Part shown: positions 43,311-62,708 of the stretch, in pieces
Layout: the number at the start of each line of letters is the position of its first letter
How positions within the stretch are numbered: position 1 is the stretch's first letter
Source of the DNA: Candidatus Latescibacterota bacterium
Lineage (GTDB): Bacteria; Latescibacterota; UBA2968
Assembly: GCA_022823725.1 (NCBI GenBank)
Contig: JAJEHL010000022.1
Location: forward strand, 15,881-79,880
Direction: 5' to 3'
Length of the DNA stretch: 64,000 bases
The notes under the pieces: model-generated
The model's database searches: none
What the model saw: only the letters and a program-made list of their open reading frames with translations
Told to the model about the DNA's origin: nothing
Position numbers and translations under genes: made by a program

Positions 43311-45854
43311 GTGACTACTCCCAACGCTGAAGCTGTTGGGCTTTACGGGCTATTAGGTAAAATGATAGATATCAATGGACAACGCAATATACTGGACCAG
43401 GTTGATCTTCTTAGATATAACCTCGTTGTAAATGGCAAAAAGAAAAACCACCTCGGCCAGTTCTTTACTCCTGCTCCGATAGCTGAGTTCATGGCACAGA
43501 TGTTTCGCATATCAGAAGCCTCTGTTCATTTACTCGATGCTGGTGCTGGAATAGGGTCTCTTTCTGCTGCTTTTGCCGATTATGTCTGCACACAGAAGCA
43601 TCTCCCGAAGGAATTTACAATCACAGCCTATGAAATTGATGCTTCATTGACGCCACTTTTAGAAAATACATTGAACGCTTGCCGCTCAAAATGTGAGCAA
43701 CTGGGCATCCATTTTAGCTACAAAATAATCAATGAAGATTTTGTCAAAGCTGCTACATCTGCACTCAGACAAGATCTGTTCTCTCCCCATGTCAAAAAGT
43801 TCAATTATGCTATTCTCAATCCCCCTTACAAAAAAATCCAGAGTTCTTCTGAACACAGAAAATTATTGCGTCGCCTTGGGATTGAAACGAGCAATCTTTA
43901 TACAGCCTTTCTTGCAATAATAAAAAAATTATTAACTGACAAAGGACAACTCGTTGCAATTACACCGAGAAGCTTCTGCAATGGACCTTATTTCAAAGCA
44001 TTTAGAAATGACTTTCTTAAAGAAATGGCATTAAAGAGAATTCACATCTTTGAATCCAGAAAAAGGGCCTTCAGCGATGATGGTGTGCTGCAAGAAAACA
44101 TCATTTTTCAGGCGATCAAATCTAAGGCAAAACCATCAGAGATAGCGATTTCATCTCATTCATCTCCAGGAGACCCTCTATTCTGGAGAGATGTTGAACA
44201 TGACCAGGTGATACATCCAGAGGATCCCGATAAGTTCATTCACATCATTACAGATGAGATGGACCATCAAATAGCCGAAAAGATGAAGCATTTTCAATCA
44301 ACTCTGGAGGAGCTTGGCATTTCGGTGTCAACGGGCAGAGTGGTTGATTTTCGAGCGGACAAATTCTTGAAACAGGTGCCAAATAAAAAAACCGTGCCCT
44401 TAATTTATCCCATGCATTTCCAGCAAGGTTTTATTGAATGGCCCCCCAAAAACAGCAAGAAACCCCATGCCATTATTTTTTCAGAAGAATCCAAAAATTT
44501 ATTGGTCCCGTCTGGCACGTATGTTTTAGTAAGGCGTTTCTCTACAAAGGAAGAAAAGCGCAGGATCGTAGCTGCTATCTATGATCCAGAGCGAATAAAA
44601 TCAGAAACAGTAGGCTTTGAGAACCATCTGAATTATTTCCATTGCAATGGAAAAGGACTGCCTACAAGCCTTGCAAAAGGACTGGCAGTTTTTCTCAATT
44701 CAATGATGGTTGACGCTTACTTCAGATTGTTCAACGGCCATACTCAGGTAAATGCTACGGACTTGAGAAGTCTAAAATACCCTTCAAGAGTAAAACTCGA
44801 ATCTCTGGGGGAAAAAATTAAGGACAGATTACCGGATGACGATGCGTTAGATAATTTAATTGAGCAAGAGGTCTTTGATATGGCAAATGAAAGCGGGAAA
44901 CCAGATCCAATCAAAAGCAAACAAAAGATAGAAGCGGCACTCGCAATACTGAAATCTATTGGTATGCCAGGTGCTCAGCAGAATGAGCGTTCAGCATTAA
45001 CCCTGCTGGCATTGATCGATGTAAAGTCTGAAACGCAGTGGGAGGATGCGAATAATCCTTTGATCGGCATTACACCCATCATGAATTTTGCGGCTGACCA
45101 TTATGGGAAACAATACGCACCAAATACGAGAGAGACCGTTAGAAGACAGACAGTACATCAGTTTTTGGATGCTGGCATTATCCGCATCAACCCCGATGTT
45201 CCCAATAGACCGACCAACAGCCCTAATACGGTATATCAAATTGAAGACTCTACTCTTGACCTGATCCGCTCTTATGGCAGTGCAAACTGGAATGAAGAAT
45301 TAGAGAAATTCCTGCTATCAAGAGAGACTTTGCAAGCGAAGTATGCACAGGAACGTCAGGAACGAAAAATCCCCGTTGATATATCAAACACAATCCAGGT
45401 AAATCTCTCCCCTGGGGGACAAAACGAGCTTGTTAAGAAAATCATTGAGGATATGTTTCCCAATTTCGCACCTGAAGGCACGATAATCTATCTTGGGGAT
45501 ACTGCCAGCAAATTTGCCTATTTTGACCGGAAAGCACTTGAAATGTTAGGTGTAGATATTGAAGACCACGGTAAGATGCCAGATGTGGTCATTCATCATA
45601 AGAAAAAAAATTGGTTGCTGCTTATCGAAGCTGTAACCAGTCATGGTCCTGTTGATCCAAAACGTCGAGGAGAGTTGCAAAAACTCTTTGAAACCTCAAA
45701 AGCAGGACTTGTTTTTATTACAACATTTTTGACTCGAAGAGATATGATGAGATATCTCCCTGAAATCTCCTGGGAAACAGAAGTCTGGATCGCTGAATCT
45801 CCGACGCATATGATACATTTTGACGGGGAGAGGTTTTTAGGGCCTTATGAATGA
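43311..45854 (+). CDS. Fused N6-adenine methyltransferase + BsuBI/PstI-family restriction endonuclease
   Basis: LGQFFTP, DAGAGIG, NPPY, GHTQVNATDL in the N-terminal ~520 aa. From Met524: ERSALTLLAL, RETVRR, MPDVV...IEAVTSHGP, SWETEVW. Alternative start ATG 43362. Confidence 0.9.
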   Translation: MTTPNAEAVGLYGLLGKMIDINGQRNILDQVDLLRYNLVVNGKKKNHLGQFFTPAPIAEFMAQMFRISEASVHLLDAGAGIGSLSAAFADYVCTQKHLPKEFTITAYEIDASLTPLLENTLNACRSKCEQLGIHFSYKIINEDFVKAATSALRQDLFSPHVKKFNYAILNPPYKKIQSSSEHRKLLRRLGIETSNLYTAFLAIIKKLLTDKGQLVAITPRSFCNGPYFKAFRNDFLKEMALKRIHIFESRKRAFSDDGVLQENIIFQAIKSKAKPSEIAISSHSSPGDPLFWRDVEHDQVIHPEDPDKFIHIITDEMDHQIAEKMKHFQSTLEELGISVSTGRVVDFRADKFLKQVPNKKTVPLIYPMHFQQGFIEWPPKNSKKPHAIIFSEESKNLLVPSGTYVLVRRFSTKEEKRRIVAAIYDPERIKSETVGFENHLNYFHCNGKGLPTSLAKGLAVFLNSMMVDAYFRLFNGHTQVNATDLRSLKYPSRVKLESLGEKIKDRLPDDDALDNLIEQEVFDMANESGKPDPIKSKQKIEAALAILKSIGMPGAQQNERSALTLLALIDVKSETQWEDANNPLIGITPIMNFAADHYGKQYAPNTRETVRRQTVHQFLDAGIIRINPDVPNRPTNSPNTVYQIEDSTLDLIRSYGSANWNEELEKFLLSRETLQAKYAQERQERKIPVDISNTIQVNLSPGGQNELVKKIIEDMFPNFAPEGTIIYLGDTASKFAYFDRKALEMLGVDIEDHGKMPDVVIHHKKKNWLLLIEAVTSHGPVDPKRRGELQKLFETSKAGLVFITTFLTRRDMMRYLPEISWETEVWIAESPTHMIHFDGERFLGPYE

Positions 45855-45929
45855 TATTTTATTTTTTTAAAAATGGCGGATCAGTGCGTCAATATAAAAG
45901 GTAGGGAATTGAAGATAGGATGATGCGAC

Positions 45930-46739
45930 TTATTCCAGATCGGGGAGTTCCTCACGGGACAGGAGCAGCTTGATTGAGCGCGCTTGGCGGGGAACTCTCG
46001 ATATAAGACCGCGTTTTTCCAGGGTTTTGAGCATGCTGTTAACGGAAGGGCCTGTGATGCCAAAATACCTCTGTATATCTGCCTGGGCCGGGGGATAACC
46101 GTTCAACTTCGTATAATAATAGATAAATGTCAGATATTGTCCCTGTCTATGGGTATATACTGGTGCCTTCTCTCGCTTGAAGACCTTGTAGCAGTCGAGA
46201 AAAGATAGCATCCGATTGCTTTCCTCAAGATCAAAATTTTCGGGATCGAATAGCTCTCCTATCCACTCTGAATACATTTCATGCTCTGGATGATTTTTGT
46301 TCTGAAGTGCGCTTAAACATTCCTCGTACCCCCAAACGCCACCCACATCCTCTGGTGGGCATGCGCGTTTTCCCGTCAGACAGATAGGATAAAACACCCC
46401 GGCTTCTGGCTCCTTGATCTGTTCAACCCGAATCATGTGTTCCCAGCTATCACCGAAATCATATTCATATATGATTTGCGCCCCAACCTCAACGGCGACC
46501 TGCTGAAGAGAGGTTTCGTTTGCATTTCGATTATCCATTCCCCAGTCTAACATGCCTGGATAAGGGGTGCTATAATAGGTATCGTCAACGATGAATTGGT
46601 GAAGATGAGAATCTGTCCATCCCATCACAATCTGAATCACCTGGTGCAATTCTCCAAGTGAGATGTTGCCATCAACCTCAACTCGCCGCCATATCGGCGG
46701 TCTGGAACCCGTTAGAGTAATTTTGAGTCGATAGATCAT
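45930..46739 (-). CDS. Plasmid pRiA4b ORF-3 family protein with C-terminal LexA-like winged HTH
   Basis: PPIWRR, HLHQF, YEYDFGDSWEH, GKRACPPEDVGG; then T.RQGQYL.FI...PP...I...F.IT..SV..ML..LE.RG.I.R. Confidence 0.85.
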   Translation of the reverse strand: MIYRLKITLTGSRPPIWRRVEVDGNISLGELHQVIQIVMGWTDSHLHQFIVDDTYYSTPYPGMLDWGMDNRNANETSLQQVAVEVGAQIIYEYDFGDSWEHMIRVEQIKEPEAGVFYPICLTGKRACPPEDVGGVWGYEECLSALQNKNHPEHEMYSEWIGELFDPENFDLEESNRMLSFLDCYKVFKREKAPVYTHRQGQYLTFIYYYTKLNGYPPAQADIQRYFGITGPSVNSMLKTLEKRGLISRVPRQARSIKLLLSREELPDLE

Positions 46740-47877
46740 GATGTATTCCTTTTAAAACTCCCAATGCACTTGAGACAGATTTTGCGATTGCATAACCCAC
46801 CGGTGGACAAACAGAATTGCCAATTTGCCCAAGCATCTGGTAAGCTGCGCCTTGAAAAATCCAATCTTCTGGGAATCCCTGAAGAAGCGCACAATCCTGA
46901 ACAGAAAGCCTGAAATGACCATTCTCCGGGGGAAACATCATGGCTTCTTCTCTGGACTTTTGCACGCCATTGGGCCAAATCTGGAGTTTTTCCCACACCT
47001 TTTGACTCGCCTTACTATTCAAAATGCTGGTCGATTTTCTGGGACCAGTGAAGCCAGAGCGAAGCGTAGGCGCAAAGCAATCAAAACCAATATCTTCCAG
47101 ACCCAAAGCAGCCCTCGTTCCCATCGTATGTCTGCCAGAGTAGAACAAGCTATCTTTGGAGAAATGGGTCGGTTCAGGAATTTTGTAGCGATTGACTACT
47201 TGGAGAGACCGAAAGCCAACAAAAATAACTCGCTTCCTGATTTGTGGCACGCCGAAGTCGGATGCGACAGCTTCGAACTTTACGATGTGATAATGCGGTG
47301 TCAGTGGCGCGAGAATCACCTCGTTTACATACTTATCGAACTTTGGATTGAGCAAGCCTGGAACATTCTCAGCAATGAAAGCCTCGGGCATGAGCGTTAG
47401 CAAAGCATCAATAAATGCGGGCCACATATCTCTGTCGTCTTTGCTCCCACTCTGCTTTCCGGCAATTGAAAAAGGCTGGCAGGGAGGACCTCCGTGAATG
47501 AGATCTACTTTACCCTTATATGTTGACCAATCTGTTTTTGTAACATCACCCTTTGAGCCATACAGAACGCTCCATTGCGGACGGTTTTGTTGGAGTGTTG
47601 CGCCACAAATATCCAGGATATCAAAACTGGCAACATGCTCAAACCCTGCATATTCAAAACTAAGATCCAAACCGCCACCACCCGAAAAGAGAGAGAGGGA
47701 TCTCAAGCCGTTTTGTCGTTGTTTTGGCATCAACTTCTCTGGTTTCAGAACAGGCTTATTGATTCTGCCCAGTTCCTGTTGCAACTCACCATTGATTGCG
47801 GCCTTCTTCCTGAGTCTGGATCGAGTAGAAATCTCTCGATACCACTCCCGTTTGGCCTCCGATATATCGTATGGCAT
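46678..47877 (-). CDS. DNA (cytosine-5) methyltransferase, no adjacent cognate endonuclease
   Basis: LFSGGGGLDL, GGPPCQPFS, ENVPG, PQIRKRV, QGFP, IGNSVCP. Confidence 0.93.
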   Translation of the reverse strand: MPYDISEAKREWYREISTRSRLRKKAAINGELQQELGRINKPVLKPEKLMPKQRQNGLRSLSLFSGGGGLDLSFEYAGFEHVASFDILDICGATLQQNRPQWSVLYGSKGDVTKTDWSTYKGKVDLIHGGPPCQPFSIAGKQSGSKDDRDMWPAFIDALLTLMPEAFIAENVPGLLNPKFDKYVNEVILAPLTPHYHIVKFEAVASDFGVPQIRKRVIFVGFRSLQVVNRYKIPEPTHFSKDSLFYSGRHTMGTRAALGLEDIGFDCFAPTLRSGFTGPRKSTSILNSKASQKVWEKLQIWPNGVQKSREEAMMFPPENGHFRLSVQDCALLQGFPEDWIFQGAAYQMLGQIGNSVCPPVGYAIAKSVSSALGVLKGIHHDLSTQNYSNGFQTADMAAS

Positions 47878-47986
47878 TATTTTTTCTCTAATCTGTTGGA
47901 ATAAACGACAACTCTGTACAAAGTATAGCTATGCTTATCCGTTTTGCCCACCCTAAAATACGCAACATCATCAGACTTCATAGATC

Positions 47987-49096
47987 CTATAACCTGTCCA
48001 CCTGCGTCTCTCCGCGCTTCAGCTCTTCCATAAGCTCATCGTATTGATCCCGATCAACCGGAAATGCAACCTCCTCTTTTCGTATAGCCGAAAGCACAAT
48101 CGCGTTAATCAACTCCAGTGTTCGCCGCGCCGTCACCCCATCTGTAATCGCCTCGCCACCATCCAGAATCGCGGAAACAAAACTCTCCACCAGTGTTTGC
48201 CCGCCCTCATCGGACGGCACATCCTCCCAGCTAATACCTGGCTGATGCCCCTTTGCCCCCTTTATAAACGCCCGCATAGGCGCCTCGTACCGCCCCAGCC
48301 GAAACACATCTGGCACCTTTGAATTGGCATTCTTCTCATCCCGAAACTCAATCGTACCCAGATCCCCTGAAATCTGCCTGTAATTCAACCGTCGATCACA
48401 CGTACTCAACTGCACATTCGCATGGGCACCACAGGCAAAACGGATATTGGCAACAACCGTATCCTCAATCTCCACCCGATGACCCCAATTGCACATCATC
48501 GCAGAAACCGCAACCGGATCGCCCACCATCCAGCACAGCAAATCCAGATCGTGGCTGGTCTGATTCATCAGCACCCCGCCCCCTGCGTGCTCCCAGGTAC
48601 ACCGCCAGATATCCCGGTCGTAATACACCTCTGGCCGCGTCTCAATCCACATCCACAGCACCCGGTAAATCTCTCCCAGTGCCCCCTCATCAATCAGCCG
48701 CTTCAACGCGCGATTGCCGGGAAACGTGCGATAATTGTGTCCCACCGCCAGCTTCAGATCCCGCGCCTGCGCCGCCTCAATCATCCTATCCGCTTCGGAA
48801 ACCGTATTCGCAATCGGTTTCTCCACAAAAGTATGCAACCCCGCCTCCAGACAATCCAACCCCATCGGCGCGTGGAGATGGTGCGGCGTTGCAATCACCA
48901 CCGCATCCAGATCCTCGGACGCGATCATCTCCCGGTAATCGCCCCAGGCGCGCGCACCCCGCTCTTCCCCAACCTGCCGCGCATAATCCAGATCCAGATC
49001 CGCCACCGCCACCAACTCCGCCCGATCCAGTCCTGAAATCTCCCGTACATGCTGCCCGCCCATACCCTTCAAACCGACCACACCGAACCTGACCAT
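47987..49096 (-). CDS. Gfo/Idh/MocA family oxidoreductase
   Basis: VVGLKGMG, EKP, GGGVLMNQTSHDLD. Start moved to 49096. Confidence 0.9.
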   Translation of the reverse strand: MVRFGVVGLKGMGGQHVREISGLDRAELVAVADLDLDYARQVGEERGARAWGDYREMIASEDLDAVVIATPHHLHAPMGLDCLEAGLHTFVEKPIANTVSEADRMIEAAQARDLKLAVGHNYRTFPGNRALKRLIDEGALGEIYRVLWMWIETRPEVYYDRDIWRCTWEHAGGGVLMNQTSHDLDLLCWMVGDPVAVSAMMCNWGHRVEIEDTVVANIRFACGAHANVQLSTCDRRLNYRQISGDLGTIEFRDEKNANSKVPDVFRLGRYEAPMRAFIKGAKGHQPGISWEDVPSDEGGQTLVESFVSAILDGGEAITDGVTARRTLELINAIVLSAIRKEEVAFPVDRDQYDELMEELKRGETQVDRL

Positions 49097-49114
49097 AACG
49101 CTCTCCTTGATATG

Positions 49115-49140
49115 AGGGGCGAGGCATGCCTCGCCCCTAC
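49115..49140 (-). repeat. GTAG-type REP palindrome (single copy in the window)
   Basis: Minus strand GTAG-GGGCGAGGCATGCCTCGCCC-CT, a perfect palindrome. Confidence 0.6.
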
Positions 49141-49251
49141 GGTTGCTTTTCGCGCCTGATAGCTTATTTGCAGCACAGTACACCCATCAGACATATTGAC
49201 AAACAACGTGTCAATCCATAATATTCAAAAAACAAACTCGGAGGACTCCCC

Positions 49252-49815
49252 ATGCCCAACACCTTCCAAAATCGCGCCGAAGCCTTTGCCTGGCTCAGCC
49301 AAAATGACCCCCGTGCGCCCAAAGCAGGAGATCCCGCGCCAGACTTTGAACTATCGGACATCAACGGCGAAAACCCCGTGCGCCTCTCGCAACTATGCAA
49401 AGACAAACCCGTTGCACTCATCTTTGGCAGCTTCACGTGACCGCCCTTTGTCCGCGAGGCGGTCAGCCTCCGCGACCTCTATGCAACATATCACAAACAG
49501 GTACACTTTCTCGTAATCTATATCCGCGAAGCCCATCCAGAAGACGGCTGGAAACTCAAAGACACGGGCATCTACGACCCAAAAACCCTTGCGGAACGCC
49601 GAAAAGTTGCAAAAACATGCGAAAATGCTATGCAATACGGCATACGCACCTATGTTGACGACATGGACGACGCTGTCATGAACGACTATGTCGCCTGGCC
49701 CGAACGCCTCTACCTCATCGGCACGGACAACCGCATCGCCTACGCGGGCAAACACGGTCCCTATGGATTCAGCCCCGAAGAACTCAAAGCGGCAATAGAT
49801 CACATCACCCGTTGA
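49252..49815 (+). CDS. Iodothyronine deiodinase-like selenoprotein (Sec at TGA 49438-49440), 187 aa
   Basis: Track ORFs 49252..49440 and 49630..49815 share a frame. Readthrough gives GDPAPDF...FGSFT-U-PPF...YIREAHPEDGW...YVAWPERLYLI...GPYG, the deiodinase signature. Confidence 0.92.
49450..49476 (+). promoter_or_regulatory. Bacterial SECIS hairpin of the deiodinase-like gene
   Basis: GAGGC-GGTCA-GCCTC upper stem 15 nt after the UGA, with extendable lower pairing. Confidence 0.75.
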
Positions 49816-51272
49816 AATTTCTCAAACGCCTCGTCCCAGGCATCCGTATCCGTCGGGCTATACGTCTTAATCGCCGTAGAAGCGCGCACAATATCGCGCA
49901 ATTCATCCAAAGAGCCAATCTGCCCTTTGCCCATCGCCTGCATCAAAAGATTGCCCATTGCAGTCGCTTCAGCCGGACCTGACAGCACCGCACGCCCCGT
50001 TGCAGAAGCGATAAACTGGCACAAAAGCGTATTGTGAATGCCCCCACCCACAATGTGAATATCGCCGAGCGTCTTACCCAATACATCTTCGAGCTGACCC
50101 AGAACATAGCGACACTTGAGCGCCAGACTCTCCAGTGCCGTGCGAATAATATCCCCTTCGCTACCGGGTATCGATTGACCCGTGCGCCTGCAAAAATCCC
50201 GAATGCGAGACGGCATATCCCCGGGCGTACCAAAATCAGCGTGATCCGGATCGATAAACGACGCGAGCCGATCCGATTCCATTGCCAGCCCCATCAACTC
50301 CTCCCACGAATAATCCTTCCCCGCCAAAGCCCACACGCGGCGGCACTCCTGCACAATCCACAGCCCCGAAATATTTTTCAGAAATCGAATCGTATGATCA
50401 ACACCGCCCTCATTGGTAAAATTGTGCGCGAGCGCGCGCTTATTAATCGCGGGTTCAGGCAACTCCGCCCCCATCAACGCCCATGTGCCACAACTGATAT
50501 AAACCGCATCGGGTGAAGAAAGGGGCACAGCCGCAACCGCCGACCCCGTATCGTGACAAGCCGGTGCAATCACATCAACAGGCGCAATACCCATCTCATC
50601 CGCAATGCTCTTGCGAACAGGACCAAGCACCGTACCTGGCGACACCACATCCGGAAGCATATCCGTGGGAATATCGAGCGCATTGAGCATTGATTTTGCC
50701 CAGGCATTCTCGCGCGGATTGTAAAACTGCGTAGTCGTTGCATTGGAATACTCACACACCTTCATACCCGTGAACCAGAAATTGAACAAATCGGGCATCG
50801 TGAGAAACGTACGCGCAATATCGAGCTGAGGCGACTGCGCGAGACGCTGCGCGAGCAACTGATAAAGCGTGTTAAGCTCCATAAACTGAATACCCGTCTG
50901 CTCAAAAATCTCCTCGCGAGAAACGCGCTCAAACGCGACATCCATCATCCCCTGTGTGCGCTCATCGCGGTAACAAAAGGGATTGCCGAGCAAATTGTCC
51001 TGCGCGTCGAGCAAGCCATAATCGACCCCCCACGTATCACAGCCCATGCCATTGAGCGGTTCTCCGGACCGAACAGCGAGACGCAACCCCGTACACATCT
51101 CGTCAAACAGCCGCAGCGCATCCCAATAATAATGATTGCCAACAGGTATTCCCTGATTCGGAAAACGATGAATCTCTTCAATATCCAGACGCGCGCCATC
51201 AAAACGACCCAAAACAGCCCGACCGCTGGACGCGCCCAAATCATAAGCGAGATAATTGGTCGTCGATGCCAT
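49800..51272 (-). CDS. rhaB: Rhamnulokinase (FGGY family)
   Basis: AYDLGASSGR, DTWGVDYGL, HDTGSAV, SCGTW, GGGIHN, GPAEATA. Confidence 0.88.
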   Translation of the reverse strand: MASTTNYLAYDLGASSGRAVLGRFDGARLDIEEIHRFPNQGIPVGNHYYWDALRLFDEMCTGLRLAVRSGEPLNGMGCDTWGVDYGLLDAQDNLLGNPFCYRDERTQGMMDVAFERVSREEIFEQTGIQFMELNTLYQLLAQRLAQSPQLDIARTFLTMPDLFNFWFTGMKVCEYSNATTTQFYNPRENAWAKSMLNALDIPTDMLPDVVSPGTVLGPVRKSIADEMGIAPVDVIAPACHDTGSAVAAVPLSSPDAVYISCGTWALMGAELPEPAINKRALAHNFTNEGGVDHTIRFLKNISGLWIVQECRRVWALAGKDYSWEELMGLAMESDRLASFIDPDHADFGTPGDMPSRIRDFCRRTGQSIPGSEGDIIRTALESLALKCRYVLGQLEDVLGKTLGDIHIVGGGIHNTLLCQFIASATGRAVLSGPAEATAMGNLLMQAMGKGQIGSLDELRDIVRASTAIKTYSPTDTDAWDEAFEKFQRVM

Positions 51273-51370
51273 AAAAAACTCCATTTTTCACATTGTGTTT
51301 ATACAATTCAGTGGCTATTATAGGACGCAGTTGGAAAGTGTCAAGTATTTCGTTATCAGGAGTGTGTATT

Positions 51371-52987
51371 ATGAGCAAAGATTTGAAAGCAATTTTTGAT
51401 TTTTGGAAGCGTTTTGCGTGTCAAAGCGGTCTGCATCGCCGCGATTTAATCAAAGGCGTCGCCGCCGCAAGTCTCGGTCTGGCAGCCGGAACCTTTGGTG
51501 CGCCACAACTCTACGGAAATTCAAACGCATCGAAATCAAAACGACGCAATCGCATCCAACTCGAAAACGCCGAGCGTGGAACGCGGGACTGGATGCTCAC
51601 CAAGACACGCCAGCTTCCGGGGAAGATCAATCCCATCTTGACCAACGGGCGCTGCCCGTGGATTGAAGGGTATTGCTCGGCGAACAGCATTCGAGCTGGC
51701 GAGAAGTTGCAGATTATGGTGAGCACGGCTCCAGCATCCGCGTTCAAGTTGGAGATCTTTCGGACCGGTTACTACAACGGGGATGGGGGGCGGCTTGTTC
51801 GTACTTATGATGCGCTCGAAGGCACCCAGCAGCCGGACCCGCCCATCGATGAAAACTACCTGCGCGAATGCAGTTGGAAGCCCTCTGTGGAATTCGAGAT
51901 TCCCGAAGATTGGCTGAGCGGCGTCTACCTGGGGAAACTGACGGAAGAGACCAGCGGAATTCAGAGCTACGTCATCTTCATCGTCCGCGATGATCGCCCC
52001 TGCGATCTGCTGTTTCAATGCAGTGACCTGACCTGGTCTGCCTACAACCGCTGGCCTGCCGATTTCTCTATTTACACAAAACATGAAGGGTATTCCAGCA
52101 CCGGTGTGCCCAGCGGGACAGTGAGCTTCGATCGGCCCTACGGCTTGTTTACCCACCCCGTCAACAAGCACAAGACCTCCGGTGGCTCCGGCGAATTCCT
52201 GCCCTGGGAATTCCCATTGTCCTTTTGGCTGGAGCAACACGGGTACGATGTTTCCTATATCTCCAATATCGACACGCACGCCGACCTCGCGGGTTTGCTG
52301 CGCACCAAAGGGTTCATTTCGGTGGGGCACGACGAGTACTGGACTTTGGACATGTACGACAATGTGCTCAAAGCCCGTGACGAAGGCGTGAACCTGGCGT
52401 TTCTAAGCGCCAATTCAGTTCTCTGTGTAGTACCGCTGCTGCCTTCCGCAAACGGTACGCCCAACCGCGCCACGCGCAGAGAAGGCTGGTTCTTTCCATC
52501 CGAATACCACAGCAGGGTCGAACAAAGAACGCACAATCAGAAAGGTTTTCAACCCAACATGGGTCCCGATGGCGCACAATTAATGGGGGCACGGTGGACT
52601 CCCCCCGGTAGAGGAAGCGGCGATTGGACATGCGCCATGCCAGAACACTGGCTTTTTGAAGGGACCGGGATGGAAAAGGGAGATTCGGTCAAAGGTCTCG
52701 TTGGCTGGGAGTGGCACGGTGCTCCCGCGATGGACCTGCCCGGAATGCAAGTCGTTGCTGAAGGCGAAACACTGATCAACGGCAAAAATCCGGGCCATTA
52801 TACCGCAACCGTTTACGACGGGCCAAAAGGCAACATCGTGTTCAACTGCGCCACCATCTGGTGGGCCAATGGTTTGTCCAGCCCACCGGGGCACGTCAAC
52901 CCATCAAGGCATGGGGTAACGCAACAAGGCCCAGACGAGCGCGTCCAGCAAATTACTCACAATCTGTTTCAACGCTTTATTGGGTAA
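51371..52987 (+). CDS. Tat-exported N,N-dimethylformamidase beta-subunit-like domain protein
   Basis: RRDLIK Tat motif, IEGYCS, TWSAYN, VSFDRPY, GHDEYW, VFNCATIWW. Start moved to 51371. Confidence 0.75.
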   Translation: MSKDLKAIFDFWKRFACQSGLHRRDLIKGVAAASLGLAAGTFGAPQLYGNSNASKSKRRNRIQLENAERGTRDWMLTKTRQLPGKINPILTNGRCPWIEGYCSANSIRAGEKLQIMVSTAPASAFKLEIFRTGYYNGDGGRLVRTYDALEGTQQPDPPIDENYLRECSWKPSVEFEIPEDWLSGVYLGKLTEETSGIQSYVIFIVRDDRPCDLLFQCSDLTWSAYNRWPADFSIYTKHEGYSSTGVPSGTVSFDRPYGLFTHPVNKHKTSGGSGEFLPWEFPLSFWLEQHGYDVSYISNIDTHADLAGLLRTKGFISVGHDEYWTLDMYDNVLKARDEGVNLAFLSANSVLCVVPLLPSANGTPNRATRREGWFFPSEYHSRVEQRTHNQKGFQPNMGPDGAQLMGARWTPPGRGSGDWTCAMPEHWLFEGTGMEKGDSVKGLVGWEWHGAPAMDLPGMQVVAEGETLINGKNPGHYTATVYDGPKGNIVFNCATIWWANGLSSPPGHVNPSRHGVTQQGPDERVQQITHNLFQRFIG

Positions 52988-53007
52988 AAATAAAGGGGAA
53001 ATCTAGA

Positions 53008-53200
53008 GTCAACTACCACCGCCAGAGGCGGTGGCTTGTAGCTGTCACACCCCGAGGGGCGATTCGCTACATTAGGCTTGTTGACACAAAGCCCTTGCTC
53101 GGATGTTCCGAGCAGCGTTGCGGTCAGCATGGTCTTTATGACCACACACTTTGCACTGGAAGGATGCTTGGGTAGGTCTATTGTCTTTCTCACAATGCCC
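53008..53200 (-). ncRNA. Putative TnpB omegaRNA/reRNA scaffold (guide taken from the flank beyond 53008)
   Basis: Structured right end (CGCCCCTCGGGGTG; CCACCGCC/GGCGGTGG) overlapping the tnpB 3' end, as established for TnpB elements. The 5' limit is a guess. Confidence 0.6.
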
Positions 53201-54163
53201 GCATTCGGCACATGTCTGGCTGGTATATTTGGGGTCAACAGGTTCTATGTGGATACCAACACGTTTGGCCTTGTATTCGATAAAGGTGCGAAGTTGGAAG
53301 AAAGACCACCCAGACATCTTTGCACGCTGAGGCTTGCGAAACCGTTTCTGGCTCTTGCGTATGCCTTCGAGGTCTTCAAGAGCAATCGCTTTGCCAGTGT
53401 CTTTGGCCTTCTCAACGATGCGTTTAGAGAAGATATGGTTGGTGTTTCTACGAAACCTGCTCTCCCGGCCAGAGATGGCAGAGAGTTTTCTGCGAACATT
53501 CTTGGGTCTCTTGCCTTGCTTGACAAGGGCAGACGCTTTCTGTTGGAGCAACTTTTTCAGATCGTGCATCTTCTGGCGGACGTTTTCAACTGTGTCGCCG
53601 GAAAAAGTCTCGCCATCATCGGTGACAGCGATGTTCGTCACGCCGAGATCAACGCCGATAAAATCAGTAGCAGGTATTGGCGTACCATCAGGAACATCTA
53701 CAGAGACAAGCAAGAACCACTTGCCGTCTTTGCGGAGCACAAGGTCTGCTTGTCCTTTGGCATAGCCGAACTGCTCACGCTGGTAATTGCCCATAAGCAT
53801 CGGCACAAGCACGCGCCCTTCCAACGTGAGCAGAGATACCTGGTCTATGCCCTTGAAGCTATACAGGCGTTGATCGTAAGGCATACCAGCATGGCGACGA
53901 AACGACGGTTGCACCGCTTTGTCGCGCTTATACGCCTCTACAACCTGGGCAATACAGCGACACGCCATCTGGGACGAAAGGCTAAATCGCTCGCGCAACT
54001 CGTAGTAATATAGCTTGTGTAACGCAATGCCGTTTGCCAGCTTGCGCTCATAAGCCTTCGGTGCAAGCCAATTGGCAGCTTCGTTGAACCGCTCAACAGT
54101 CGCTTTTAACCTCTGTGCTGTGTCCGTATCCGGTAGCAGTTGTGTTTGTAAAGTAAGTATCAT
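53072..54163 (-). CDS. tnpB: RNA-guided endonuclease TnpB, 363 aa
   Basis: RuvC-I IGVDLG, RuvC-II ALEDL, Zn finger TSQTC..CG...C..CG, RuvC-III HADRNAARNI. Start moved to ATG 54163. Confidence 0.95.
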   Translation of the reverse strand: MILTLQTQLLPDTDTAQRLKATVERFNEAANWLAPKAYERKLANGIALHKLYYYELRERFSLSSQMACRCIAQVVEAYKRDKAVQPSFRRHAGMPYDQRLYSFKGIDQVSLLTLEGRVLVPMLMGNYQREQFGYAKGQADLVLRKDGKWFLLVSVDVPDGTPIPATDFIGVDLGVTNIAVTDDGETFSGDTVENVRQKMHDLKKLLQQKASALVKQGKRPKNVRRKLSAISGRESRFRRNTNHIFSKRIVEKAKDTGKAIALEDLEGIRKSQKRFRKPQRAKMSGWSFFQLRTFIEYKAKRVGIHIEPVDPKYTSQTCAECGHCEKDNRPTQASFQCKVCGHKDHADRNAARNIRARALCQQA

Positions 54164-54170
54164 ATTGATA

Positions 54171-54198
54171 ACTATAATCAGTATGAAATGTTTGTCAA
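54171..54198 (-). promoter_or_regulatory. sigma70 promoter of tnpB inside the left end
   Basis: TTGACA-16 nt-TATAGT. Confidence 0.65.
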
Positions 54199-54265
54199 CA
54201 TCCACTTTTACGGCAAAGCCCAGTTTCTCTGACCACGCCCAAAGGACGTGGGTTCCGCAGGTAAA

Positions 54266-54928
54266 ATGAAAAAAAAGGGAGATGTCCGGCTCCATGTGGA
54301 TCATATCGTGCGCGCTGGCCACGCTTTCCGAAGAACGCCCCAAGGAGGTATCGTCTTACAGGAGAAACTGTGGGAGGCCCTCTCGCAATTTGTGGGTCCA
54401 AATGTGCCAAAGGGCCCGTTGGTTGACCCCGGCAAAGAATACTTCAAGGTCAACAGAAAGACGCGACGCTTTGAGAAACTTGAGCTGAAAGACGGCATGC
54501 ATCCATTCAGCATGGATATGCCAGTCGGCATCATGAGAGGCGATACCATCACACTGGTTTGCACGGGAGAACCAGGAACCACCTATCGCGTAGAACTCAG
54601 CCCGGTAGAAGGCCTTGATGCACCCGGTTTCGAAACAAAGGGAGAGATTGCGGCAGACACAAGTATGAGAGGCGTGAGTCTTATAGAAGTGCCACTGGAT
54701 CAGCCCCTTGGCAGATACCGATATCGCCTGTGGATCAAGAAACCAGGCCAGGAAGAAGTGGAATTGGACAAGAGCCATACCGTATCAGGCGGAGGAGCCT
54801 TTATGGAAATATGGGATGAGAAATCGGCAGACAACATCGTGAGCGGCGACCACGTCTGGCGTAAACTCTATCTACCGCTCTTGCCAAAAAAGCTCGGGCC
54901 TGTAGGCTGGGGATTCTCTGAATATTAG
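54266..54928 (+). CDS. Hypothetical protein, possibly a 5'-truncated gene remnant
   Basis: Coding-like ORF that begins immediately outside the IS left end. N-terminal VRLHVDHIVRAGHAF recalls the C-terminal His loop of alpha/beta hydrolases. Confidence 0.5.
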   Translation: MKKKGDVRLHVDHIVRAGHAFRRTPQGGIVLQEKLWEALSQFVGPNVPKGPLVDPGKEYFKVNRKTRRFEKLELKDGMHPFSMDMPVGIMRGDTITLVCTGEPGTTYRVELSPVEGLDAPGFETKGEIAADTSMRGVSLIEVPLDQPLGRYRYRLWIKKPGQEEVELDKSHTVSGGGAFMEIWDEKSADNIVSGDHVWRKLYLPLLPKKLGPVGWGFSEY

Positions 54929-54957
54929 CCTGGATCTTCAGTTAATAAGGAGGAACC

Positions 54958-56196
54958 ATGAACAAACAACGCCCAATCCTACTCTTAGTGATCCTCGCCC
55001 TGGTGGCGGCCGCACCCTTCTCGAATGCGCAAGCGCAACAGTTCTCCGAAGAAGAACTGTCTCGATTCCTCAGGCAACATCCCGGCGCGGATGCGGATGG
55101 CGATGGCAAGCTGACCGCAGAGGAGATCAAGGCCGCCCGCGCACGCAAGGAGCAAGCTGAGGCCGCAGCAGCGCAATGGAAGGGGAGATTTCACCCCGGC
55201 TGGGAGAAGGATGAATTCCCGCCGCACGCGGTAAGCTTTAAGACGCCTGATGAGATTATGGCAATTTATAAGCGCGGCCCTGCGGGTCGAAGTTATGTGG
55301 ATGCGAGCGACGCCCTTTCCTTTCCCAAGCCTGCCGACGGCATCATGCGCATCGTGGGCACGGGCCACAGCTTCACTGCGCCCGGCTACAGAACCTTACC
55401 CGCCATCACCCGTGCCGCCGGGTTCGAGCAGCCCTTTTGCCTGCATAACGGCGGCGGGGAAACGGGCAGCGTTCGCTACAAATGGGAGCAGGAAAATGGC
55501 ATCTTCCAATTCGACGGCAAGCCCCTGCCCAAACTGCTGTCTGCTATTTCCAACGCGGAATGGGAGGCGATGATCTGGGGACCCTACGTCGGTGATCGTC
55601 CGGAATTTTACACGTGCTGGATCGATTTCTGCGAACAATACAATCCCGGCATGAAGTTTTTTCTCATCGACGGCTGGCCCACGCTATCTCAGGTCCAGAG
55701 CGTCTTCAATCGGAAAGGAAACCCGGAGTCTGAAGCGTTCTTCACCGATGCGGTCTTCGATCAGCTCAACGCCCCTGTGAACACTGGCTTTGCGGCCTTC
55801 GTGAAAACGCTGCGCGAATCAACCGATGAAGTCTATATCTTGCCGACGCGCGCCGCCATGACGGAGGCGGCCAAACGCTTCATCCGAGGAGAGCTTCCCG
55901 GCGTAGAAGGCCTGTATAAGGTCATTGGCGGAAAAGAAAGTTCTATCTGGGCAGACCAACGCGGCCACTTGGGGCCCGGCTTCGACCGCCTGGAGGGCTA
56001 TGTCTTCTACGCCACGCTCTACGGCAAATCCCCCGAACTCATTTCAGCGCCTATCAAGTTCAATAGAAATCCGAGTTTCCTAAGCGCCGACCTTGACGAA
56101 ATTTTCCGCGAAATCGCCTGGAAAGCGGTGGTGGAGCATCCCCTCTCCGGCGTTACAGATAAAAATAAGAACGGCATTGGCGATCATCTTGAGTAG
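54958..56196 (+). CDS. Secreted protein with EF-hand and SGNH-like domain
   Basis: Signal peptide, DADGDGKLTAEE EF-hand loop, GTGHSF block I, DQRGHLG block V-like. Confidence 0.65.
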   Translation: MNKQRPILLLVILALVAAAPFSNAQAQQFSEEELSRFLRQHPGADADGDGKLTAEEIKAARARKEQAEAAAAQWKGRFHPGWEKDEFPPHAVSFKTPDEIMAIYKRGPAGRSYVDASDALSFPKPADGIMRIVGTGHSFTAPGYRTLPAITRAAGFEQPFCLHNGGGETGSVRYKWEQENGIFQFDGKPLPKLLSAISNAEWEAMIWGPYVGDRPEFYTCWIDFCEQYNPGMKFFLIDGWPTLSQVQSVFNRKGNPESEAFFTDAVFDQLNAPVNTGFAAFVKTLRESTDEVYILPTRAAMTEAAKRFIRGELPGVEGLYKVIGGKESSIWADQRGHLGPGFDRLEGYVFYATLYGKSPELISAPIKFNRNPSFLSADLDEIFREIAWKAVVEHPLSGVTDKNKNGIGDHLE

Positions 56197-56329
56197 CGGT
56201 CGAGCAGCGTATAACGGCGAATCTATTCGATCGGTTTATTCAGACGAATCTACAGTCGCATGGCGTGACACAAAATCAGATAGAGTGCAAACCCGGTCAG
56301 CCCCATCTACAGATTATATAAGGAATCGC

Positions 56330-57463
56330 ATGAAACCTGTCGTCGCGCACAGTGCCAACCCCTATTTACCAGCAACAGCCACCTGGATATACGACCAGAT
56401 TCGCGCATTAAAACGGTACCGCCCCATCGTCCTCACACAAATGCGCCAGAACCTGGATCGTTTTCCCACAGAAACCGTCTTATCAGCTGAAGATATATCG
56501 CCCATCCGCAGAACAACCCTGCGCCTCATTCGCAAAATGCGCGGCACGTACGCCGGCTATAAAAACTGGCTTTGCGAACACAACGCCGCCCTCATCCACG
56601 CGCATTTTGGGCAGGAGGGATACCGGTGCCTCTCCGCAAAACAACGAGCGGGCATCCCCTTGATCACCACCTTCTACGGCCTGGACGTATCGGCACTACC
56701 CCGGCAAAAAAAATGGCAAAAACGGTATAAACGCCTCTTTGCCGAAGGCGACTACTTCCTCGTCGAAGGCCCCTTCATGGGCGAACAACTCATCGCACTT
56801 GGATGCCCTGCCAACCGGGTAATCGTACAACACCTAAGCGTAGATCTCGAAAAAATCCCCTGCAGAACAGACCACACACCCGAACAACCCATCGTATTGA
56901 CATATAGCGTATTCCGAGAAAAAAAAGGCTTGAAATACGCAATCCGGGCTTATGCAAAAATAGCGGAAAAATATCCGGACGCCCAACTGCGCATGATAGG
57001 CGACGGACCTTTGCGCCCACAACTACAAGCTGAAATACGAAATCTACACCTCGAAAACCGCGTAAAAATGCTCGGCCTGCTCCCCCATCCTCTCGCACTG
57101 GAAGAACTAAAACGCGCAACAATCCTCCTCTATCCCAGCGTCACAGCATCAGATGGCGACACCGAAGGCGGTGCCCCCGTAGCCCTCATCGAAGCCATGG
57201 CAATGGGCGTCCCCATTGTATCGTCCCGACACGCCGACATCCCCGAAGTCGTAATCGACAAAACCTGCGGCCTATTATATCCCGAACGAGACATCGCGGG
57301 CCTCGCCGAAGGATTGGACACCCTCCTCAACTCCCCCGAACAATTTGGTCGCGCTGGCCGCGCTCACGTCGAAAAGCAGCACAACCTGGAAAAACAGGGT
57401 AAAAAATTAGAGGTGATTTACGATCGGGTTGTGATGAACAAGCCCCCAATGCATAATCCTTGA
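56330..57463 (+). CDS. Glycosyltransferase family 4 (WcaL-like)
   Basis: HAHFG, TTFYGLD, EKKGL, DGDTEGGAPVALIEAMA. Start moved to 56330. Confidence 0.9.
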   Translation: MKPVVAHSANPYLPATATWIYDQIRALKRYRPIVLTQMRQNLDRFPTETVLSAEDISPIRRTTLRLIRKMRGTYAGYKNWLCEHNAALIHAHFGQEGYRCLSAKQRAGIPLITTFYGLDVSALPRQKKWQKRYKRLFAEGDYFLVEGPFMGEQLIALGCPANRVIVQHLSVDLEKIPCRTDHTPEQPIVLTYSVFREKKGLKYAIRAYAKIAEKYPDAQLRMIGDGPLRPQLQAEIRNLHLENRVKMLGLLPHPLALEELKRATILLYPSVTASDGDTEGGAPVALIEAMAMGVPIVSSRHADIPEVVIDKTCGLLYPERDIAGLAEGLDTLLNSPEQFGRAGRAHVEKQHNLEKQGKKLEVIYDRVVMNKPPMHNP

Positions 57464-57528
57464 CATCCGCGACTATTAACACAATTTATTCAGTGCTCAT
57501 TCCTCGCGTACTTAAAATGGAGACAGAA

Positions 57529-58908
57529 ATGCCTGAACACCCCAACCTCGTATTTGTATTCCCCGACGAATATCGCAAACAAGCCATGGGATTCATGAAC
57601 GAAGACCCCGTAATAACCCCTAACATCGACCGATTTGCATCTGAAAGCCTGGTATTAACCGACGCCGTAAGCACCAGACCTGTATGCAGCCCCTATCGGG
57701 CAATGCTCTTCACCGGACAATATCCCCACGCCAATGGCGTACTCAGCAACGTCAACTCCACCACAGTACAATACGAAAACTACCTCCGGGAAAACGCACG
57801 GTGCTTCTCTGACGTCTTACACGACGCTGGCTACAACCAGGCGTATCTGGGCAAACTACACCTCGATCCCCCTAATGAACAATATCAATACACCGAAGGA
57901 CCGAGAGGAAATGGCGTCATCTGGGACTCATATACCCCGCCGGGACCGCGCAGACACGGCTATGACTTCTGGTATTCCTACGGCTGTTGCGACTGGCACT
58001 TCGACCCCCATTACTGGACTGGCAATGACCCCATAGACAAACGCATCGACCCGAAGGAATGGTCTCCCAAACACGAAACCGACATCGCAATAAACTACAT
58101 CCGCAACGAAGGTGGAAAATACAGAGATCCCAAAAAACCATTCTCACTCGTCATATCCCACAACCCGCCGCACATGCCATTCAAACAAGTACCGGAAAAA
58201 TACGTCGCCCAATACGGCGATGCCACCCATGAAGACCTCTTGACGCGCCCCAACGTACCCACAGACACAAGCGGCGACAGCGCCCGCGAAAATGTAAAAC
58301 ACTACTTCGCCATGGTAACCGGCGTCAATGAAAACTTCGGACGCATACTGGACTGTCTGAAAACAGAGGGCATGGAAGAAAACACCATCGTCGTCTTCAC
58401 CTCTGACCACGGCGAAATGATGGGCAGCCATGGCCGCATCGGCAAAACCGTACACTACGAAGAATCCTTCACCGTGCCATTCATCATCCGCTGGCCCGGA
58501 AAAATCACACCCGGCACAGATGACCTGTTAATCGGCACACCCGACTTGATGCCCACACTGCTCAACCTCATGGGCGTGGGACAGGTCCCCGACAGCGTCC
58601 AGGGAATGGATTACTCCGATATCCTCCTGGGTAAAAAAGGCACGCGCCCAGCATCTGCACTCTACCTCAACGTAATGCCCGACAACCCCGCTGGCGGATC
58701 GCGTGGCGTGCGCACACACCGACACACGTATGTGGTCACGCAAACAGGCGAAGACGAAGAAACAATCCTCCACGACAACATCGCGGACCCCTACCAGCTA
58801 CAAAACATCGCTGGCGATCATCCCGGCCTTGAAGCAGAACTTGAGGAAGAAATGAACAACTGGTTGAAAAAAACCGGCGACCCATGGTTGACGCGAATAG
58901 ACGAATAG
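57529..58908 (+). CDS. Sulfatase (Cys-type)
   Basis: PNLVFVFPDEYR, CSPYR, GKLHLD, SDHGEMMGSHG. Confidence 0.95.
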   Translation: MPEHPNLVFVFPDEYRKQAMGFMNEDPVITPNIDRFASESLVLTDAVSTRPVCSPYRAMLFTGQYPHANGVLSNVNSTTVQYENYLRENARCFSDVLHDAGYNQAYLGKLHLDPPNEQYQYTEGPRGNGVIWDSYTPPGPRRHGYDFWYSYGCCDWHFDPHYWTGNDPIDKRIDPKEWSPKHETDIAINYIRNEGGKYRDPKKPFSLVISHNPPHMPFKQVPEKYVAQYGDATHEDLLTRPNVPTDTSGDSARENVKHYFAMVTGVNENFGRILDCLKTEGMEENTIVVFTSDHGEMMGSHGRIGKTVHYEESFTVPFIIRWPGKITPGTDDLLIGTPDLMPTLLNLMGVGQVPDSVQGMDYSDILLGKKGTRPASALYLNVMPDNPAGGSRGVRTHRHTYVVTQTGEDEETILHDNIADPYQLQNIAGDHPGLEAELEEEMNNWLKKTGDPWLTRIDE

Positions 58909-58998
58909 ACGACCCCCGCCCCACCACCCAAAACCTCTGGATTGCGGCTAAAACCCTGCCGCAATGACGGCTTTCAGGTACATTACCTGTTTCATTGA
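58895..58998. repeat. REP-like family, long copy H
   Basis: Matches B, D and G; followed by the AACTGG...CCAGTTGTACACCG module (59009-59040). Confidence 0.9.
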
Positions 58999-59061
58999 TT
59001 CGTAGATGAACTGGTCTGAGAAGCGACCAGTTGTACACCGTTCCGCTGAAAGGAGCAATAA

Positions 59062-60372
59062 ATGGCAGACACCCCAAATCTCCTCGTCATCCACACCGAC
59101 GAACAAAGCTGCTGGACATTGAGCGCGTATGGCGGAACACTCGTCGAAACGCCCCACATCGACTCCCTCGCAAACGAAGGCGCGATCTTGACCAACTTCA
59201 TGGTCAACGTCGCCGTATGCACCCCATCCCGAGGCGTCTTCCTCACCGGGCGCTACGAACATGTACACGGTGCCTATCGCAACAACATCCCCCTCAACCG
59301 CGATGAAATCACATTTGCCCAGGCATTAAAAGACCGCGGATACGACACCGGATACGCGGGCAAATGGCATCTGGACGGACCCCCGCGCCCCGGCTGGGTA
59401 CACCCCGAACGCACAATGGGCTTTGACGACGCCCAATACATGTTCAACCGCGGACACTGGAAAAAAATTGAAGACGTCGAAATGGGCGATGTGCAACCCA
59501 CGGTGTTTAATTACAGGACCATGGGCGACGAAAAAACCTATCCAACAGACTGGCTAACCGAAAAAACCAATGAATTTTTGACGCGAGATCGAGAAAACCC
59601 ATTTTGTTTTATGCTCAGCATCCCCGATCCCCATCCGCCATTTACCGTGCGCCCACCCTACGACACCATGTACAACCCCGCAGACATGCCATTGCCCGAC
59701 ACGCGCAACGAAGAAAATAAGCCAAGCTGGGTAGCCAACAGACAGGCTCCGAAAGACGAAATCCTGCGCAAACACATGGCCCAATACTGCGGCATGGTCA
59801 AAGTCATAGACGACTGCGTGGGCAAAATGCTCAATGCACTCCGCGAAAAAGGGATCTTAGACAACACAATCGTGGTCTTCACATCCGACCACGGCGAATA
59901 CCTCGGCGAACACGGATTAATGGGCAAAAATCAACTCTATGAAACGGCGTATCGCGTCCCCATGTTAATCCGCTGGCCCGAAAAAATTCCGGCTGCCACG
60001 CGAATAGATCGCCTGGTCGGCTCCGTCGATTTCATGCCCACCATCTTGACCCTCATGGGATTTGAACCCTGTGGTCGCGAGCACGGACGAGATGCATCCG
60101 CACTCTTGCGCGGCGAAGAAACCGAATGGGACGACATCTGTTATATCCACCACGACCCCGACAGAGCCGGCGTATTCACCCCCAATTACGAACTCGCTTA
60201 TGTAAAGGACCACGACGCCATTCTCTTTGATCGTCAAAACGATCCCGACCAGGTGAACAACCTGTTTGACGCCCCCGAACACCGGGAAATGATCGCAACC
60301 ATGACCGCTGATCTCGCCGCACATCACGCATCGGTAGATTCCCCAGCGACGGAGTGGTTGCGGGAGTTGTAA
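59062..60372 (+). CDS. Sulfatase (Cys-type)
   Basis: PNLLVIHTDEQ, CTPSR, GKWHLDG, SDHGEYLGEHG. Confidence 0.95.
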   Translation: MADTPNLLVIHTDEQSCWTLSAYGGTLVETPHIDSLANEGAILTNFMVNVAVCTPSRGVFLTGRYEHVHGAYRNNIPLNRDEITFAQALKDRGYDTGYAGKWHLDGPPRPGWVHPERTMGFDDAQYMFNRGHWKKIEDVEMGDVQPTVFNYRTMGDEKTYPTDWLTEKTNEFLTRDRENPFCFMLSIPDPHPPFTVRPPYDTMYNPADMPLPDTRNEENKPSWVANRQAPKDEILRKHMAQYCGMVKVIDDCVGKMLNALREKGILDNTIVVFTSDHGEYLGEHGLMGKNQLYETAYRVPMLIRWPEKIPAATRIDRLVGSVDFMPTILTLMGFEPCGREHGRDASALLRGEETEWDDICYIHHDPDRAGVFTPNYELAYVKDHDAILFDRQNDPDQVNNLFDAPEHREMIATMTADLAAHHASVDSPATEWLREL

Positions 60373-60381
60373 GGAGGATCT

Positions 60382-60861
60382 ATGGCATTTGATTCACGGC
60401 TGCAACGAGACATAATGGGGCGGTTTGCAACAGGTGTCACCGTCGTCACCACGCGATATAAAAACGGCGACATAACCGGCATGACAGCCAACGCCGTCAT
60501 GTCTTTGTCGCTGGATCCACCGCTCGTCGTGGTATCGGTCGATAAATCGGCCACCATGCACAGCGCCTTATCGGACGGACAGTGTTATGCAATCAACATC
60601 CTCACCCGAGAGCAAGAGCATCTGTCCAACCGATTTGCCATGCCGGGGCCAAAGGACTTTTCCGACCTGACATTGCGCGAAAGCGAAACAGGTGCGCCGA
60701 TCCTGGAGGAAACACTGGGATATCTCGACTGCAAGATAGTGAACATCTTGCCAGCAGGCGACCACGACATGTTTGTAGGAGAAATACTGGCGGGAGAATT
60801 GGGAGAGGGAAATCCGTTGCTCTATTATGGAGGGAAGTATCGAAGTATGGCAGAAGAATAA
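60382..60861 (+). CDS. Flavin reductase-like protein
   Basis: FATGVTVVT, GMTAN, SLDPP, GDH.MFVG, PLLYYGG. Confidence 0.92.
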   Translation: MAFDSRLQRDIMGRFATGVTVVTTRYKNGDITGMTANAVMSLSLDPPLVVVSVDKSATMHSALSDGQCYAINILTREQEHLSNRFAMPGPKDFSDLTLRESETGAPILEETLGYLDCKIVNILPAGDHDMFVGEILAGELGEGNPLLYYGGKYRSMAEE

Positions 60862-60863
60862 GC

Positions 60864-62579: not shown

Positions 62580-62708
62580 ATCATTTATTCCTTAAAAAAA
62601 GGGGCTGGGGACTGGTTGAGTTGATCGCTGGAAATCAGCCATCAGCTAACCGCTTGTTTTCAAAGATAGAATATCACAATAGCCGTGTCAAATAGGAAGG
62701 AGTTCAAA

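Follow-up and report, generated by a model that had tools for sequence, protein, structure and literature searches.

The 64,000-nucleotide stretch analysed here (the window; contig JAJEHL010000022.1, positions 15,881 to 79,880) comes from a Candidatus Latescibacterota bacterium and carries an intact insertion sequence (IS) that encodes the protein TnpB and no transposase. The element is a routine member of the tnpB-only, IS1341-type elements of the IS200/IS605 family, inserted 3' of a TTCAT motif. Like the IS1341 group (PMC13565253), it has tnpB as its sole gene with no tnpA between the ends, subterminal hairpins at both ends, and neither terminal inverted repeats nor a target duplication; unlike that group, it adjoins a 7-kb deletion, has a mutated left guide and belongs to a subtype found at start codons. 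A preliminary description of this DNA, made from the letters alone, had already noted that the two end hairpins are related, and both 8-bp hairpins are present. Sister copies, 1,258-1,260 bp long and 93-96% identical, occur at many sites, and close relatives of the protein are located in Candidatus Latescibacterota genomes. Below, G000 denotes the genome of the window (51 contigs, 98% complete), other G numbers sister or related genomes, C numbers contigs and L numbers individual loci.

The ends were fixed by comparison with other copies and with alleles that lack the element. On the right, four G000 paralogues, whose TnpBs are 84-91% identical to that of the window at the amino acid level, and one copy without a gene, on C7, all finish in GTTGAC and are followed by unrelated DNA. 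In the empty alleles of four sister genomes, position 53007 directly adjoins the first codon of a 481-aa sulfatase. On the left, at four sites unrelated to one another, the near-identical elements L002, L003, L004 and L028 show TTCAT followed by a common left end; when the element is removed at TTCAT and the right end from the first three, the sites align over 800 of 800 nt to G000's own alleles. A paralogue on C16 (L063), with a left end unlike that of the window, is likewise located at TTCAT, and its empty site brings back a desaturase motif. These alignments place the element at 53008-54265 and identify TTCAT as its transposon-associated motif (TAM). The right terminus of L002 (2650-2660) reads TTGAT, not TTGAC, with loss of the last pseudoknot/guide match, probably a change after insertion.

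The preliminary description had placed the left end at 54260 and read the TAM as TTTTAC. Those letters are indeed present at the left end, and TTAC is the target of IS608 (PMC3201880). However, TTTAC belongs to the conserved element itself, as its first five bases, in every sister copy, and it varies there (TTTTC in L004); TTCAT precedes the left end at every independent site, and TTTAC is not at the junction in the empty alleles. That placement is very improbable, and a test built on TTTTAC would fail. Aligning other genomic copies, the check that the description itself proposed, upheld its right end and guide and moved its left end to 54265.

In IS608 of Helicobacter pylori, four-base DNA guides 5' of the hairpins set the cleavage sites (PMC3201880). 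The same rule holds at both ends here, across 89 relatives; IS608 differs in its target, TTAC, and in encoding TnpA. Left hairpins with a GA.. guide were seen at 117 of 161 loci, and at 89 of these (76%) the predicted TCAN motif was found 12-32 nt upstream, compared with 18 of 351 (5%) for unpredicted TCAN motifs at the same distance. The pairing register, which we take to be that of IS608, agrees with these counts. Two copies deviate by one base in the left guide (G_L), the window copy with GAAC and L003 with GAAG; the altered base in the window is the partner of the last T in TTCAT.

The protein scored 204.9 bits with the guided-TnpB model NF040570 (cut-off 100) and was above the cut-offs of PF07282 and PF01385. 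As first described, it retains the three RuvC acidic residues (D172, E263 and D347) and the zinc finger (C318/C321/C337/C340), all of which are invariant in 23 relatives of 47-91% identity. Its AlphaFold model, with a predicted local distance difference test score (pLDDT) of 87, matches Cas12f and TnpB structures. The closest solved folds are AsCas12f1 and OsCas12f (PDB 8dzj, 7wju, 9nzq; E ~1e-22, 21-23% identity), and since Cas12f proteins top the PDB matches by both structure and sequence, a stand-alone Cas12f-like CRISPR effector has to be considered in place of a transposon TnpB. Yet those proteins are CRISPR-associated, dimeric and 420-500 aa long, whereas no array or cas genes were found at the locus (arrays being sought over 44000-64000 of the window), the Cas12f2 model NF049972 gave 146 bits against a cut-off of 450, and transposon ends and empty sites are present, making such an effector extremely improbable.

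Within the TnpB family, ISDra2 TnpB (PDB 8h1j, 8bf8, 8exa; PMC10097598) resembles the window protein in its RuvC-zinc finger arrangement and in a pseudoknotted RNA that overlaps the end of the open reading frame (ORF). In contrast, it belongs to the 'Typical' clade, uses the TAM TTGAT, comes from an autonomous element and has a structural identity of 16-18%; the Typical-clade model NF038281 scored 88 against a cut-off of 425. Inspection of motifs and RNA layout would instead place the window protein in the 'Derived' clade, the type of the 373-aa AmaTnpB of Alicyclobacillus macrosporangiidus (PMC10278001, Supplementary S2). The two have, by inspection, common N-terminal and recognition-lobe (REC) motifs, TAMs of the TCAN type and one omega-RNA layout, comprising two 5' stems, a loop-terminus pseudoknot, a CAAG guide, a 3' hairpin and a TGAC end. 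They differ in that AmaTnpB has K45/Q49 and a measured TAM of TTCAC, whereas the window protein has G45/H49 and the target TTCAT.

The 3' region of the element folds beyond chance (z = -5.2), and the pseudoknot pairing is perfect in 76 of 106 relatives, compared with 1.5% when termini were swapped between elements (counted by script). This covariation supports a predicted structured, pseudoknotted omega-RNA at the right end that would take its guide from flanking DNA. On the forward strand that guide corresponds to the ribosome-binding region of the originally targeted sulfatase gene; TTCAT plus guide matches three of the four empty alleles perfectly, and no near-perfect target was found elsewhere in G000. 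Comparison with Rfam gave no match, and the left end, which is separated from the tnpB ATG by only 102 nt, showed no group I intron core of the kind that defines an IStron. The gene has its own promoter, as previously proposed; it stops 7 nt short of the ATG, and no Shine-Dalgarno sequence precedes that codon, so the mRNA is probably leaderless. An antisense ORF of 311 aa (53078-54013) was dismissed as a shadow frame; close copies have it at lengths anywhere between 183 and 311 aa. Coordinates are collected in Table 1.

Table 1. Features of the element and its flanks (positions in the window)
Feature	Position	Strand	Basis and remarks
Whole element, IS200/IS605, IS1341-type, tnpB only	53008-54265	-	1,258 bp; ends from paralogues and empty alleles
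tnpB, 363 aa	53072-54163	-	ORF and profile matches
RuvC D172	53648-53650	-	Conserved catalytic residue
RuvC E263	53375-53377	-	Conserved catalytic residue
RuvC D347	53123-53125	-	Conserved catalytic residue
His49 codon, REC-helix position tracking last target base	54017-54019	-	50-relative comparison
tnpB promoter	54171-54198	-	Sigma70-type; -35 54198-54193, -10 54176-54171; 11/12 consensus; kept in sister copies
Predicted omega-RNA scaffold, ~113 nt	53008-53120	-	Overlaps last 16 tnpB codons; 5' end inferred from 106-nt AmaTnpB scaffold
Pseudoknot partner, loop of second stem	53080-53085	-	Pairs with terminal hexamer 53008-53013
20-nt guide	52988-53007	-	Empty alleles: perfect in G005, G020 and G012; one mismatch in G002
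Right subterminal hairpin	53016-53034	-	8-bp hairpin; letters and paralogues
Right DNA guide (G_R) CAAG	53035-53038	-	Predicts cleavage site TGAC at 53008-53011 (IS608 guide rule)
Left subterminal hairpin, predicted TnpA binding site	54233-54251	-	8-bp hairpin; identical to both hairpins of L312
Left DNA guide (G_L) GAAC	54252-54255	-	GAAA in three sister copies
Outward Shine-Dalgarno-like motif, left end	54256-54265	+	3-4 nt before target ATG; function inferred
Target motif/TAM TTCAT (ATGAA on + strand), outside element	54266-54270	-	Original site and five other independent TCAT-type insertions
220-codon C-terminal remnant of 635-aa gene	54266-54928	+	Far end of 7,028-bp deletion

The results presented above suggest a model, which as a whole we hold with considerable confidence, whereby the Y1 transposase of another element, itself inferred, placed the window element 3' of TTCAT, between the ribosome-binding site and the ATG of the sulfatase gene. 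One transcript from the element's promoter would be trimmed by TnpB, leaving an omega-RNA of about 113 nt with the flanking guide attached, as judged from AmaTnpB and, for the structure, from covariation. The complex would cut TTCAT followed by the guide, that is, any element-free copy of the site, with His49 presumably conferring a preference for T at TAM position -1. Such cutting would favour retention of the element through recombinational repair, as is established for the family (10.1101/2023.03.14.532601, PMC10278001). AmaTnpB and the TnpBs of ISDra2 and ISGst cut element-free donor sites (10.1101/2023.03.14.532601), and by analogy the window protein may be expected to act like them. The left end would later have come to adjoin a second ATGAA, within a 635-aa gene, through a homology-assisted loss of 7,028 bp that perhaps began with a nick at this end.

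Action of a tnpA in trans, as proposed in the preliminary description, appears likely. The tnpA search advised there was successful in part: the single Y1 transposase of G000, on C37, lies within an IS605-type element whose left end differs, and a hairpin-matched tnpA was found in G006. That locus, L312 (G006:C1:354300-354900), is of the IS200 type with tnpA only (144 aa), the guide AAAC and the target TTAG, and both its hairpins are letter-for-letter equal to the left hairpin of the window element; its TnpA is a likely mobiliser of elements of the window type. Lone L312 right-end hairpins, with T-runs after them, are present on C35, C39 and C49 of G000. Gene-less elements of about 430-455 bp (L136-L150, including G000:C7:12100-12570, which is L147) lie at many sites across the genus. 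They have the left hairpin of the window element, the guide GAAG, the target TTCAC and a matching right end; their interior, which is not tnpB-derived at the DNA level, may encode a structured RNA. Many independent insertions together with gene-less copies in the genus make trans-mobilisation appear likely for the element group. The window copy itself is probably stranded, with its probable cognate tnpA missing from G000 and its G_L mutated.

Several points weigh against the model. With respect to transposition, G_L is mutated, the left-end hairpins on C37 differ, and the C37 transposase, the only relative of L312-type tnpA in G000, is 27% identical to it; with a mutated guide and a mismatched transposase, present mobility is doubtful. 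The fifth TAM base (TTCAT as opposed to NTCAT) is supported by six sites only. In the published TAM screen, in which 27 of 59 TnpB orthologues of 353-550 aa were active (PMC10278001), a TTCAT TAM was measured for none and the sole His49 member (orthologue 10) scored inactive. The protein might be decayed or able only to bind, with no cleavage in practice, as 32 of the 59 intact-looking orthologues were inactive there (PMC10278001), but its catalytic and zinc-binding residues are all intact, the omega-RNA is full and the promoter strong, and sister copies 93-96% identical persist at many sites; we regard loss of cleavage as unlikely. By the measure of that survey, the 'ready-to-test miniature' nuclease of the preliminary description is fit for testing and otherwise unremarkable, 363 aa being an ordinary length.

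The left flank of the window element is foreign to its original insertion site. Three relatives have a 635-aa gene of which the ORF at 54266-54928 represents the final 220 codons, and the two window junctions lie 7,028 bp apart in G005, where the intervening segment holds the sulfatase, a DMFA2-like gene, a beta-lactamase-family gene and the front of the 635-aa gene. This segment is absent from the G000 assembly. TTCAT is present at both deletion junctions, and the left-end/sulfatase junction shares 10 identical bases with the far junction (17 of 24 overall), a context found at 0.66% of G000 ATGAA sites and at none of the 20 intervening sites that were skipped. Since these bases are shared at both junctions, we consider a homology-assisted deletion somewhat more likely than not, in preference to two other routes. 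A pair of identical copies, each located at one of the two ATGAA motifs, could have recombined or been merged into one by the assembler; the perfect motif at both junctions fits this, and in an assembly of 51 contigs recombination and collapse yield identical sequence. However, the added identity at the second junction is unexpected from an independent insertion, the 7,028-bp segment appears nowhere else in the assembly, and G000 has no second copy above 86% identity, so that this route seems unlikely. Alternatively, TnpA might have made an adjacent deletion in which the left end became attached to a different TTCAT at a distance of 7 kb. The junction does lie precisely at the left-end cleavage site with the correct motif, and IS200/IS605 ends tolerate alternative boundaries (10.1101/2023.03.14.532601), but 20 nearer TTCAT sites were passed over and the one used has flanking homology, which renders a TnpA-made deletion still harder to accept. 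Whichever route was taken, the nuclease logic is unchanged, as excision would still make TTCAT plus guide. The idea that excision would give the 220-aa ORF back a ribosome-binding site of its own was rejected, the ORF being the tail of the 635-aa gene and the binding site that of the deleted sulfatase. Window positions 51371-56196 (a DMFA2_C-family gene and unknown exported proteins) are a shortened version of a variable cluster, which in sister genomes contains several DMFA2_C paralogues and sulfatases.

The final base of the target was compared with the protein in 50 representatives (less than 85% N-terminal identity within a class), with target classes inferred from the DNA, the rows of L030, L003 and L063 set by hand, and 28 calls without a motif excluded. 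One alignment (A2), in which the L063 row was mis-oriented, was left out of the counts. Column 49 was by far the most informative, with His in 19/19 TCAT, Gln in 17/17 TCAC and 8/8 TCAA, and Arg in 5/6 TCAG; columns 72, 45, 68 and 69 came next. With these columns left out of the tree, His49 coincided with TCAT in all seven independent pairs on supported branches (p = 0.016), and residue 69 followed purine/pyrimidine in four of four, a number too small for significance. Three measured TAMs fit the code by inspection (PMC10278001): TTCAC for AmaTnpB (Q49/R69), TTCAA for orthologue 1 (Q49/R72) and TTCAG for orthologue 5 (R49/Q68/K72). In ISDra2 TnpB, Y52 and S56 contact TAM base -1 (PMC10097598), and the model, in a register taken from the helix starts, would put residues 45 and 49 at the corresponding helix positions. 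The final target base is thus probably read by residue 49, and the code, taken alone, is likely to hold. If so, Derived-clade TAMs would be readable from protein sequence and alterable by point substitution. The five TnpBs of G000, 84-91% identical, have two inferred targets (TTCAT and TCAC) and differ at a handful of REC residues; these paralogues form a matched natural experiment, whereas the element alone is routine. The C16 copy (G000:C16:47290-48580) lies within a fatty-acid-desaturase-like gene and has G45/H49 and TTCAT like the window copy, with different ends.

On the opposite strand TTCAT reads ATGAA, and at each of the five insertions of the window's left-end subtype a long ORF begins at the junction: a sulfatase in the window, L028 and L002, a D-Ala-D-Ala ligase in L003 and a sugar-binding lipoprotein in L004. 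The true start of the L002 sulfatase is possibly five codons further on, so the start-codon sites number four to five of five. Three of the five are ATGA stop-start overlaps within operons. Against a null from rough gene calls (starts at 6.1% of all ATGAA sites and at 31% of non-genic ones), the enrichment gave p = 0.003 for 5/5 and 0.036 for 4/5, post hoc. As a family-wide trait, start-codon docking was not supported, 8 of 26 TCAT insertions across phyla (31%) being start-like, equal to the null of 31%. At L153 (G005:C11, junction 1488/1489) this element sits exactly at the start codon of ddl and splits an ATGA stop-start overlap. No other D-Ala-D-Ala ligase gene was found in that genome, which is 98% complete, and this one is therefore probably still expressed.

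The outward Shine-Dalgarno-like motif of the left end is weak in the window copy and reads GGAGG in L003, L004 and L028. That it functions as a ribosome-binding site is, taken alone, a speculative suggestion: the spacing from GGAGG to ATG is short (3-4 nt), a consensus scan found no outward promoter in the left end, and such motifs are about equally common in TCAC (15/34) and TCAT (13/29) left ends. If docking is real, it would offer an intron-less IS a route to being tolerated inside operons. More tentatively still, the last base may be set in step by the left DNA guide, through TnpA, and by the REC code (49, with 45, 68, 69 and 72), switching repeatedly even between 90%-identical G000 copies, with the TTCAT subtype tolerated at start codons, even that of essential ddl, through the left-end ribosome-binding site and read-through transcription. 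That TnpA and TnpB co-evolve is well known in general, and a true code would show how their specificities remain matched. Neither the code nor start-codon docking was found stated in the literature searched, whose coverage fell short of some key papers.

A TCAC-type paralogue with K45/Q49, L069 (G000:C51:37670-38950), lies at a GTG start/TGA stop overlap, and the ORF that follows is presumably citrate-lyase-beta-like. The other IS605-family elements of G000 (C37:34800-36400, C9:178-900, C21:7-440 and C16:9150-10540) carry other TnpB types and have the right ends TCAA, TCAC and CGAT.

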